26,779 bases of DNA from Candidatus Buchananbacteria bacterium RIFCSPLOWO2_02_FULL_46_11b (GTDB taxonomy: Bacteria > Patescibacteriota > Patescibacteriia > Buchananbacterales > UBA6539). This document shows positions 4,358 through 7,551 of the stretch, one piece after another. The notes below the pieces were generated by a model. The model had not been told where the DNA came from. It did not search any database and was given only the letters and a program-made list of their open reading frames with translations. The stretch spans positions 5,313 through 32,091 of the forward strand of contig MHIR01000023.1 in NCBI GenBank assembly GCA_001817615.1, written 5' to 3'. Made by a program: the position numbers and the translations under genes. How positions within the stretch are numbered: the stretch's first letter is position 1; every line of letters begins with the position of its first letter.

Positions 4358-4648
4358 CTAAAAGACCGACTTGGTCTTGACCAAATTATCCTCCCGCTCC
4401 GGCGCCAGCTTAAGCAATTCCTCGCGAACCTTTGGGCCAACCTGATTAATGGCATCATCGGCCATCACGTTTTCCAGGCCTGTTACCTGGGCCGTCGGCA
4501 AAACACCTTCGGTGTCCACTTCTTTCAGCTGTTCCACGTAATCTAAAATAGAAGAAAGCTGGCCGGCAAACTTCTCAATTTCTTCCGCCGTCAGGCCCAG
4601 CCGGGCCAAAAGGGCGATATGTTTTACTTCTTGCTTAGAAAGATTCAT
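4358..4648 (-). CDS. gatC: Amidotransferase subunit C
   Basis: 96 aa, EVKHIALLARL...QLSSILDYVEQLKEVDT; directly upstream of gatA. Confidence 0.95.
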   Translation of the reverse strand: MNLSKQEVKHIALLARLGLTAEEIEKFAGQLSSILDYVEQLKEVDTEGVLPTAQVTGLENVMADDAINQVGPKVREELLKLAPEREDNLVKTKSVF

Positions 4649-4688
4649 AATCGTTTTTTAACAAAATTTAGCTGGTTTTTACCTTTAT

Positions 4689-4717
4689 AGTATACAGATA
4701 ATTTTGGGGTTTGACAA
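4689..4717 (-). promoter_or_regulatory. Sigma70-type promoter for gatC-gatA
   Basis: TTGTCA-N17-TATACT on the minus strand, ~40 nt upstream of the gatC ATG. Confidence 0.75.
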
Positions 4718-4739
4718 GCCCGAGATAATATGATATTTT
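4711..4739 (+). promoter_or_regulatory. Divergent sigma70-type promoter facing the gatC-ligA intergenic element
   Basis: Perfect TTGACA (4711-4716), 17-nt spacer, weak -10 TATTTT preceded by TGn. The -35 overlaps the -35 of the gatC promoter. Confidence 0.45.
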
Positions 4740-4760
4740 TATTTTACCACTACCGAAGAC

Positions 4761-5337
4761 GGCAATGAGCTCCGGGCCGCGCGGGGCCTTCCACCTCTCC
4801 GCGGGAGGTTCAACTCCTCCGGCTTATTGCCTCTATAATCTAAATTTTTCCACCAAGGATTTAACAAGCCGGCTGATTGGCCGGTTATAGGTTTAAATCC
4901 TATCGGATCCGCCAAATCTTTGGTTGCGGCGGCCACGGGTAATAACTCCCGAGCCAAAATCCGCTTCACTTTTTCTTTCATGCCGCAACCAAATCTTTTG
5001 CTTTTCTTTGCCCCGGACGGTGGGACCGCAGTCCAACACCGGTATGTCTGCCTCCAACGGCGCTTTCAGGGGCTTTTTTCCCCCGGCCCCGCGCCAAACA
5101 GACGTCATTCCGGGGCAAAATTTTTTCTGCCCGGCATCTCTTTATGAAACCTTAACCAAAGCCATGGGAAGTCTCGCTGCCTTCGGCCCAGAAAGCGCTT
5201 TACCCCGAATAATTCCGTTCTTTAATTTATTTTTTGCCCCGGACGGCGCAATCCCCCAAGGCGCTGGCATGTCTGTCCCAAGCGGCGTTTCCAGGAGTTC
5301 CCCCCGACTCCGCGCCAACCAGACGTCATTCCGGGGC
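4761..5337 (+). ncRNA. Candidate structured ncRNA of unknown family
   Basis: Consecutive stem-loops at 4761-4831, 4856-4901, 4920-4992, 5007-5119 and 5236-5337. G-U pairs and a T-loop favour the plus strand; bounded by a promoter-like and a terminator-like sequence. Confidence 0.5.
5007..5337 (+). repeat. Two diverged copies of a ~105-113-nt structured motif (5007-5119 and 5233-5337)
   Basis: Both copies share TTTGCCCCGGACGG, GGYATGTCTG and CAGACGTCATTCCGGGGC; inner stems show compensatory changes. Confidence 0.9.
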
Positions 5338-5346
5338 TTAAAATTC

Positions 5347-5389
5347 AAAAAGGCGCGAACTGAAAATTCAGGACGCGCCTTCTTTTTTT
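5347..5389. terminator. Probable bidirectional intrinsic terminator
   Basis: AAGGCGCG/CGCGCCTT stem with a T7 tract on the plus side and an A5 tract on the other side; 10 nt past the ligA stop. Confidence 0.75.
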
Positions 5390-5398
5390 CGCGATCGG

Positions 5399-7551
<2,153 letters not shown>

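Follow-up and report, generated by a model that had tools for sequence, protein, structure and literature searches.

The acceptor/T-arm minihelix is the part of a transfer RNA (tRNA) that is recognised by RNase P, by the 3' nucleases and by the CCA-adding enzyme, and T-loops are also found as tertiary-contact modules in RNase P RNA, ribosomal RNA and some riboswitches. In YrlA, which accompanies an rsr gene, a D-arm-like element is retained alongside a stem that binds Ro60. The RtT repeats (RF00391), located behind E. coli tyrT, are tandem copies of a tRNA 3' part with a clear identity to the parent tRNA. In vertebrates, mascRNA is a tRNA-like RNA whose acceptor stem is lengthened and which undergoes cleavage by RNase P and RNase Z and addition of CCA (PMC8457004). 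The present work concerns a tRNA-like element, named e1, located on the plus strand (4761-4831) of a stretch of 26,779 nt from Candidatus Buchananbacteria bacterium RIFCSPLOWO2_02_FULL_46_11b; this whole stretch is called the window, and positions follow its numbering. e1 probably descends from a tRNA gene of a conserved slot next to gatC and is unable to decode, because its D-arm is lost and no usable 7-nt anticodon loop is present, so that neither the elbow of the L-shape nor decoding is within its reach.

The assembly comprises 1.03 Mb in 73 contigs, with 45% G+C, and is 89% complete; in size and style it corresponds to an uncultured bacterium of the small-genome, candidate-phyla type. e1 sits in a 750-nt spacer poor in open reading frames (4649-5398), between gatC and ligA, with gatA beyond gatC. 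The element, its promoters and its neighbours are the following:

4761..4831, plus strand: e1, tRNA-like element made of a closing stem, a connector (4772-4779), a hairpin (4780-4803) and a T-arm (4804-4820) (sequence reading, folding)
4711..4739, plus strand: promoter of the plus-strand transcript, TTGACA (4711-4716), 17-nt spacer, TG (4731-4732) and TATTTT (4734-4739) (consensus scan)
4689..4717, minus strand: divergent gatC promoter, TTGTCA, 17 nt, TATACT (consensus scan)
4358..4648, minus strand: gatC (Pfam GatC, E = 9e-22)
5399..7426, minus strand: ligA, NAD-dependent DNA ligase gene, the conserved far neighbour of the spacer (Pfam)

An assembly artefact is excluded, since the 750 nt of the spacer differ at only 0-1 positions in ten contigs that were assembled independently from other samples; the few differences among these ten other assemblies of the species cluster in one part of gatA. 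Contig MHIK01000063.1 of NCBI assembly GCA_001817465.1 carries the locus as well, as do JGI and ENA samples. A hidden protein gene in the spacer was rejected, the five reading frames that cross it having no match in Pfam.

The T-arm of e1 is composed of GGAGG (4804-4808), the loop TTCAACT (4809-4815) and CCTCC (4816-4820). Reading of the sequence confirms the consensus T-arm reported in a preliminary description of this DNA: the stem has 5 bp and the pair G53-C61, and the loop displays T54-T55-C56-R57-A58 as in tRNAs. A hairpin (CGCGGGG 4780-4786 / CTCCGCG 4797-4803), whose 7 bp include one G.U and whose 10-nt loop is CCUUCCACCU, abuts the 5' side of the T-stem with zero spacer, and had been correctly described as well. 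On the 3' side, the T-stem is abutted by the closing stem (4761-4771/4821-4831), as position 66 of the acceptor follows position 65 in a tRNA. This adjoining stem had been given as 10 bp; it is present and its length is 11 bp, 9 Watson-Crick pairs and two G.U. The reported absence of a D-arm and of CCA also holds. An 8-nt connector (4772-4779) takes the place of the D-stem, with neither a stem of 3-4 bp nor a G18-G19 loop, and model alignments delete the D-arm. CCA follows neither reading of the stem (T4828 and GCC 4829-4831 after a 7-bp acceptor, TCT after the whole stem). The favoured middle helix of 7 bp with its 10-nt loop differs from an anticodon arm (5-bp stem, 7-nt loop, U33), and an alternative 4-bp register (4783-4786/4796-4799) exposes the 7-nt loop CUUCCAC at a cost of ~10 kcal/mol (-22.5 vs -33).

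In tRNA geometry, the closing stem consists of the leader GGCA, a 7-bp acceptor (4765-4771/4821-4827), the discriminator U4828 and the trailer GCC, and e1 contains 7 + 5 stacked pairs, as a tRNA does, plus a 4-bp leader-trailer helix. The 11-bp stem is read in this way because the CCA-less tRNA genes of the host often do the same: leader-trailer helices of 4-15 bp extend the acceptor in about 6 of these 17 genes (for example C23:474-575, tRNA-Glu(CUC) and tRNA-Gln(CUG) of C34, and C9:8304-8396) and in none of the 19 CCA-encoding genes. In this 7/5 reading, G4767.U4825 forms the third acceptor pair, without A73 and without CCA. A G.U at this position is the alanine identity pair of tRNA-Ala and of transfer-messenger RNA (tmRNA); its presence in e1 is regarded as a curiosity. 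The three helices comprise 23 base pairs, every one of them intact and free of mismatch, and the fold is specific to the plus strand because the three G.U pairs would become A.C mismatches on the other strand. The minimum obtained with RNAfold is the structure described here (-33 kcal/mol; z = -2.1 against shuffles).

Two occurrences of the T-loop core GGTTCRANYCC are present in the window, one in a real tRNA-Ser and one in e1, for an expectation of 0.2. A composite motif was defined as a T-arm with an abutting hairpin of at least 6 bp and an abutting closing stem of at least 9 bp; it was found 0 times in ten random genomes of 1.03 Mb and, in the real genome, only in e1 and in genuine tRNAs. 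On these two grounds e1 is not a product of chance. That it is a fortuitous cluster of hairpins in G+C-rich noncoding DNA would agree with a fold only modestly better than shuffles and with a T-arm that is weak in the ensemble, but this explanation is already very unlikely in view of both counts and of the position, strand and promoter of e1, which all match those of the tRNA genes of relatives.

The promoter on the plus strand is of the sigma-70 type with an extended -10 (10/12 consensus matches plus the TG extension), and its predicted start lies near 4746. It is arranged back to back with the gatC promoter, both sharing a palindromic -35 region (TTGACAA/TTGTCAA) within 4689-4739. The gatC neighbourhoods of 15 related reference genomes and 80 metagenome contigs were compared, and homologues were searched with BLAST and with a covariance model in 100 related genomes. 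The gatC-ligA spacer is poor in reading frames and measures ~220-930 nt in most related loci (78 nt in one genome), with ligA on its far side in six metagenome loci and in 12 of the 15 reference genomes examined at gatC. At the DNA level, the BLAST matches of the spacer in relatives are limited to the promoter region (query 25-71). The arrangement TTGACAAG...TGnTAnnnT is kept in 29 of 34 family-level loci, including some in which the search behind it revealed no tRNA.

At least 15 related loci contain tRNAs or tRNA-like elements in the same slot, which is situated behind TTGACAAG...TGnTAnnnT on the strand opposite to gatC, at 100-350 nt from the start of that gene, and which e1 occupies in the window. 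The types found in relatives are Thr(CGU), Thr(UGU), Thr(GGU), Gly(UCC), Ala(GGC) and Met(CAU), all on the strand of the promoter and at a similar distance from gatC; the slot tRNA of the same-genus genome is at +115-189, vs +113-183 for e1. T-arm motifs with G+C-containing stems in these spacers are all on the promoter strand, and the few on the opposite strand are A+T-rich. The preliminary description had noted that e1 is head-to-head with the genes of the tRNA-dependent amidotransferase, and had suggested a processing signal or a ligand for tRNA-binding proteins; both roles are hypothetical but agree with the data. A functional link to the amidotransferase is not needed: the conserved tRNA slot and the family-wide promoter, which normally drives tRNA genes, explain the adjacency to gatCAB. 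As for the T-loop consensus, on whose retention in homologues that description had made its proposal depend, the positional homologues keep it, no sequence homologue of e1 having been found in the 100 genomes.

The contents of the slot turn over between genera, and many slot genes of the relatives are abnormal. Three of them (L019:1310-1388(-), L030:1751-1828(-) and L010:1074-1150(-)) have in common the loop motif AGCCAU, without a proper anticodon loop or U33, and acceptor helices lengthened by leader-trailer pairs; two of the three are clear orthologues with covariation in the T-stem, and their nearest normal relatives in a model search are CAU-anticodon tRNAs. Other slot genes (L014:1889-2016(+), L034:2287-2415(-), L035:127-238(-) and L047) display normal acceptor, D- and T-arms with inserts of 35-60 nt at the anticodon loop, and in L014 a UUCG-capped hairpin replaces the anticodon arm. 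L011:902-965(-) and G010:C7:9408-9478 are reduced in a way similar to e1: the acceptor and the T-arm are intact and the interior is degenerate; the former scores 19.3 bits on a model built from the slot tRNAs of relatives (R2) and the latter 30.7 bits on the Rfam tRNA model, the lowest tRNA score of its genome. The slot tRNA of the same-genus genome, typed 'Trp' by ARAGORN, reaches 38.6 bits vs more than 53 for nearly all other tRNAs of that genome. e1 itself aligns with R2 from end to end, with the D-arm deleted (17.8 bits, E = 2e-4 in the region searched).

In a whole-genome scan, e1 is absent from the RF00005 list at E <= 10. ARAGORN calls no tRNA or tmRNA at e1 by default, with thresholds at 80% or in mitochondrial mode, and at 60% it gives only junk; its options -mt and -mtd, for D-armless mitochondrial-type tRNAs, give nothing there at default thresholds. 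With Rfam, nothing is found at e1 at the gathering thresholds, and at E <= 10 only tRNA-Sec (RF01852) appears, with 17.8 bits and E = 1.7 for a gathering score of 47 bits. tRNA-Sec is characterised by a 13-bp acceptor/T branch, UCA and a long variable arm; the branch of e1 has 16 bp by the whole stem, and UCA is absent. Neither RF00023 nor ARAGORN -m detects tmRNA at e1, which carries only the third-pair G.U and has no message-like domain, A73 or CCA. The Rfam models of Y RNA and YrlA have no match at e1 at E <= 10, and a TROVE/Ro60 gene (PF05731) was not found in the 89%-complete assembly; a Y RNA/Ro60 system was rejected on these two grounds. The relaxed ARAGORN runs, the YrlA and tmRNA models and the search for a Ro60/Rsr gene, all proposed as checks in the preliminary description, were therefore negative, and the mimic of the Y-RNA or tmRNA kind that it envisaged is not supported. 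Its designation of e1 as tRNA-like, on the other hand, is borne out by its T-arm and the geometry of its helices, together with its slot in the genome and its promoter.

tmRNA, SmpB and RNase P RNA were not found in the 89%-complete assembly either, most likely owing to assembly gaps. The relatives carry both RNAs at other loci: tmRNA above the Rfam cut-off lies outside the gatC spacer in 18 of 19 related genomes searched, and RNase P RNA lies outside it in all 19. The spacer is consequently neither of the two, and its readings as a divergent tmRNA and as an RNase P RNA were both rejected. A phage origin of the spacer found no match in 50,697 phage records.

Sequence similarity to tRNAs was evaluated with a set of 82 tRNAs from the host genome, the same-genus genome and the slot. 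Only the T-arm of e1 exceeds the shuffles (score 29 vs 20.1 +/- 2.5), the 5' 43 nt being at shuffle level, so that e1 is not recognisable as a recent tRNA copy. The decay from a genomic tRNA, which would have counted against the preliminary description, is likewise not apparent for any of the 82. The hairpin loop contains CUUCCA, the anticodon-loop string of tRNA-Gly(UCC), a tRNA that fills the slot in two relatives.

Downstream of e1, the rest of the spacer contains the following features:

4850..4855, plus strand: orphan CCACCA, the same string that ends the CCA-encoding tRNA genes of the host (sequence)
4857..4914, plus strand: e2, a second, weaker D-armless tRNA-like reading (folding)
4911..5001, plus strand: long hairpin with 20-nt arms 85% complementary, then a T-rich run (inverted repeat, folds)
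5010..5116, plus strand: three-way-junction motif, copy 1, ~107 nt, outer stem GCCCCGGA/UCCGGGGC (inverted repeats, folds)
5236..5337, plus strand: three-way-junction motif, copy 2 (inverted repeats, folds)
5347..5392, both strands: bidirectional terminator hairpin (5347-5384) with T runs on both strands (inverted repeat, flanking sequence)

The orphan CCACCA may be the remnant of another tRNA 3' end. e2 is composed of an acceptor GGAUUU/GGAUCC (6 bp), a 7-bp hairpin (4867-4886), a T-arm-like AUAGG/UUUAAAU/CCUAU (4887-4903), the discriminator G4911 and an encoded CCA (4912-4914). It is ambiguous, the tRNA-like fold (-18.7 kcal/mol) competing with a plain long hairpin (4856-4864/4893-4901; -18.4 kcal/mol), and on R2 its T-arm part alone scores (8.6 bits). 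The weak BLAST matches to e2 are located in unrelated places.

The 647-nt stretch 4746-5392 is densely structured and folds at z = -4.4. The terminator ends ligA on the minus strand and a noncoding transcript on the plus strand. Between the two copies of the three-way-junction motif, two pairs are changed on both sides with pairing kept, and U.G pairs favour the plus strand; because of these both-sided changes and strand-specific pairs, the downstream RNA looks selected for structure. Both copies carry C-rich apical loops. A covariance model of this tandem ~107-nt motif (R1) detects only the two copies in the host genome and none in the 100 related genomes. Since R1 and BLAST find nothing but the promoter region in relatives, everything behind the promoter appears to be species-specific.

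Beyond its observed structure, its strand, its non-chance status, the conservation of its promoter and the tRNAs that occupy the slot in relatives, we infer the transcription and processing of e1 and whatever benefit it may bring to the cell. The reading that we tentatively put forward, and which narrowly misses being probable, is that e1 is a remodelled tRNA descendant acting as tRNA-style punctuation at the head of a noncoding transcript. The conserved promoter, back to back with that of gatC, would drive the transcription of e1, which would head a plus-strand noncoding transcript of ~640 nt extending from ~4746 to the terminator (5347-5392). RNase P would cut on the 5' side of e1 and a tRNA 3'-end nuclease on the 3' side; these cuts would release a small RNA of ~64-71 nt, itself stable, and fix the 5' end of the structured RNA that follows. 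This mechanism was chosen because the minihelix is what the maturation enzymes read and because a tRNA-like cutting signal exists in vertebrates. e1 keeps precisely that part, a 7-bp acceptor on a 5-bp T-stem with a consensus T-loop, and the 4-bp leader-trailer helix too. The case for a function is made of four points: three helices free of mismatches despite a complete divergence in sequence from any tRNA, a conserved extended -10 box on the plus strand that gatC does not need, the repeated retention of the minihelix alone, in three genera, and a downstream RNA whose changes seem to preserve its structure.

A broader proposal, unlikely as it stands, is that the promoter divergent from gatC drives, across the family, fast-evolving non-decoding RNAs built on a tRNA chassis. 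Three forms are seen: a full cloverleaf with an AGCCAU loop, a tRNA with inserts of 50-60 nt at the anticodon loop, and an acceptor/T-arm minihelix such as e1. The minihelix would be the selected part, for maturation, CCA addition or even charging (through the third-pair G.U), and the variable interior together with the downstream RNA would carry a lineage-specific function.

Several observations weigh against a processing role for e1. Taken as a whole, the spacer folds just as well on its opposite strand (z = -4.4). In the ensemble of e1 the closing stem is near-certain, with a pair probability of only ~0.15 for the T-arm and ~0.3 for the hairpin. No sequence homologue of e1 was found in the 100 related genomes, hence no covariation supports it. 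Variation within the species is uninformative as a test of constraint, the spacer being identical in the ten other assemblies, which offer no informative polymorphism. RNase P can be impeded where the acceptor helix is extended without interruption (PMC8457004). Broken tRNA copies are abundant in the genome, where at least eight sub-threshold tRNA fragments (eight or nine) adjoin real tRNA genes of the same type, and e2 with the orphan CCACCA looks like debris. A plain relic is thus only slightly less likely than the punctuation element: this possible alternative holds that e1 is a dying, functionless tRNA gene whose D-arm was deleted and whose anticodon arm drifted, transcribed perhaps only through the promoter that overlaps that of gatC. 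The fragments and the debris speak for it, as do the turnover of the slot between genera, the lack of conservation of e1 beyond the species and the -35 region, which could be kept passively since it is shared with gatC. It accounts less well for the 23 pairs, all intact, of an element that has no residual similarity to the 82 tRNAs outside the T-arm and must be old and diverged, and for a plus-strand extended -10 that is unneeded by gatC and is conserved across the family. It is improbable that e1 is not derived from a tRNA at all and is the first domain of a new large structured RNA, with its T-loop as a tertiary-contact module. The dense structure of 4746-5392 throughout, the T-arm as the sole sequence similarity to tRNAs and the competing folds in the interior of e1 are consistent with this idea; the T-stem however stacks on the closing helix without any intervening nucleotide, as it does in tRNA, the distance from the promoter is that of the tRNAs of relatives, e1 displays the leader-trailer habit of the local tRNA genes, and the absence of the downstream motif from the 100 relatives leaves no conserved large RNA to which e1 could belong.

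GatCAB recognises U1-A72 and the D-loop. A tRNA mimic comparable to tmRNA or Y RNA, or else a ligand or decoy that engages GatCAB or other tRNA-binding proteins, would fit with the consensus T-loop, the adjacent gatCAB genes and a third acceptor pair G.U as in alanine-accepting RNAs. It is nevertheless quite improbable, and largely refuted for tmRNA and Y RNA: no model of either matches, no TROVE gene was found in the assembly, tmRNA is elsewhere in 18 of the 19 related genomes searched, e1 has no message-like domain, CCA or A73, its first pair is A1-U72 and it has no D-loop, and the adjacency is accounted for by the tRNA slot. Finally, it is scarcely credible that e1 works without a D-arm as a decoding tRNA such as Gly-UCC or Trp-CCA. 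The register 4783-4786/4796-4799 does give the loop C-U-UCC-A-C, tRNA-Gly(UCC) does fill the slot in two relatives, and tRNA-Trp was not found in the 89%-complete host assembly, nor were tRNA-Tyr, tRNA-Phe and tRNA-Thr(UGU/GGU). That register, though, costs ~10 kcal/mol, ARAGORN finds nothing in standard, relaxed or mitochondrial modes, a normal tRNA-Gly(UCC) is present elsewhere in the host genome, and D-armless tRNAs are described only from mitochondria (PMC7609411). The missing host tRNA genes are most likely assembly gaps: the same-genus genome has tRNA-Trp, tRNA-Thr and, by reading, tRNA-Tyr. Its normal tRNA-Trp lies in a Thr-Tyr-Thr-rpmG-Trp cluster, of which the genes for Trp, Tyr and Thr(UGU) are among those not found in the host assembly, and e1 as sole tRNA-Trp was rejected on this basis. 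A pattern search for tRNA-Trp genes in relatives performed no better than the control.

The tRNA fragments of the host are located as follows, the same-genus genome having far fewer of them:

C53:6365-6432; C34:29477-29570; C45:11578-11642; C64:2104-2162; C64:2225-2276
C23:283-341; C67:2157-2226; C59:5357-5378; C8:1915-1971

One host fragment is a 55-nt minihelix-like element with G3.U70 and ACCA, beside tRNA-Ala. A 70-nt repeat was observed downstream of five different host tRNA genes (C45:11410-11541, C41:1419-1488, C23:325-393, C64:2061-2130 and C53:6412-6478). It is composed of two hairpins on GTCCCGAC/GTCGGGAC followed by a D-arm-like TCAGYTGGTYAGAGCG, and has the appearance of an element targeting tRNA genes, or duplicating them, at the D-arm; neither e1 nor e2 contains it. 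At C67:2120-2590 (minus strand), a small GIY-YIG-like frame lies between tRNA-Lys(UUU) and a partial second tRNA-Lys without the 5' acceptor strand. The initiator tRNA of the host (C45:11187-11261) and those of two of the three relatives examined (L160, L162, L164) have the anticodon loop CCCAUAA (C33) and a T-loop UGCAACU or UGCAAAU, with G55 instead of U.

tRNA-derived relics and tRNA-like processing elements are kinds already known. What is unusual here is a bacterial element equipped with a promoter and cut down to a minihelix plus one hairpin, in a family-wide slot rich in abnormal tRNAs; the wider pattern of the slot, rather than e1 alone, merits follow-up. If e1 is only a relic, it represents a tidy case of erosion of a tRNA gene in a reduced genome and a warning against assuming a special function for T-arm look-alikes beside translation genes. 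Should the retention of the minihelix be purposeful, it would offer a bacterial parallel to mascRNA, where the enzymes of tRNA maturation set the ends of a noncoding RNA, and the slot would be a conserved site from which fast-changing RNAs on a tRNA scaffold are expressed, in a bacterial group with an almost unexplored RNA biology. Thanks to the conserved back-to-back promoter, the idea can be tested directly with existing aquifer metatranscriptomes.

Compared with the known systems, e1 resembles the RtT repeats as a partial unit probably derived from a tRNA, which would be transcribed downstream or in place of tRNA genes; unlike them, it is single, closed by its own 5' strand and without an identifiable parent. 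Like YrlA, it is a T-arm-containing tRNA mimic closed by a long stem, and it differs by the lack of an Rfam match and of a TROVE gene found in the assembly. With the tRNA-like domain of tmRNA it shares an acceptor and T-arm without a D-stem, a T-loop of the UUCAACU type and, in one reading, the third-pair G.U. However, the middle helix of e1 is closed by a 10-nt loop whereas that of tmRNA opens into pseudoknots and the tag reading frame; e1 has no A73/CCA and no Rfam or ARAGORN match, and the standard tmRNA of the relatives is at another locus. The D-armless mitochondrial tRNA-Ser of nematodes and mammals (PMC7609411) has the same succession of acceptor, short connector, longer middle helix and T-arm. 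These tRNAs have a 7-nt anticodon loop and decode, whereas e1 is not recognised by the mitochondrial mode of ARAGORN and combines a canonical T-loop with the absence of a D-loop partner for C56.

Features of e1 are also shared with bacterial tRNA genes and pseudogenes on one hand and with mascRNA and menRNA on the other hand. With the former, e1 has in common the T-arm closed by G53/C61, the TTCAANY loop, the acceptor stacked on the T-stem, a sigma-70-type promoter of its own, the tRNA slot of relatives and the local leader-trailer helix. It departs from them by the lack of a D-arm and of a variable region, by the replacement of the anticodon arm with a hairpin of 7 bp and a 10-nt loop, by scores below every tRNA detection threshold, and by perfect helices without any similarity outside the T-arm. 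mascRNA and menRNA, from the vertebrate MALAT1 and MEN-beta (PMC8457004), are like e1 in their non-decoding fold, in an acceptor extended by leader-trailer pairs and in being joined to a long structured noncoding RNA. mascRNA is eukaryotic, is located at the 3' end of a long noncoding RNA and has a cloverleaf with a D-arm, whereas e1 is bacterial and at the 5' end. The role of cutting site, demonstrated for mascRNA (PMC8457004), is proposed for e1, where the minihelix and the extended stem together have the anatomy of a putative processing substrate.

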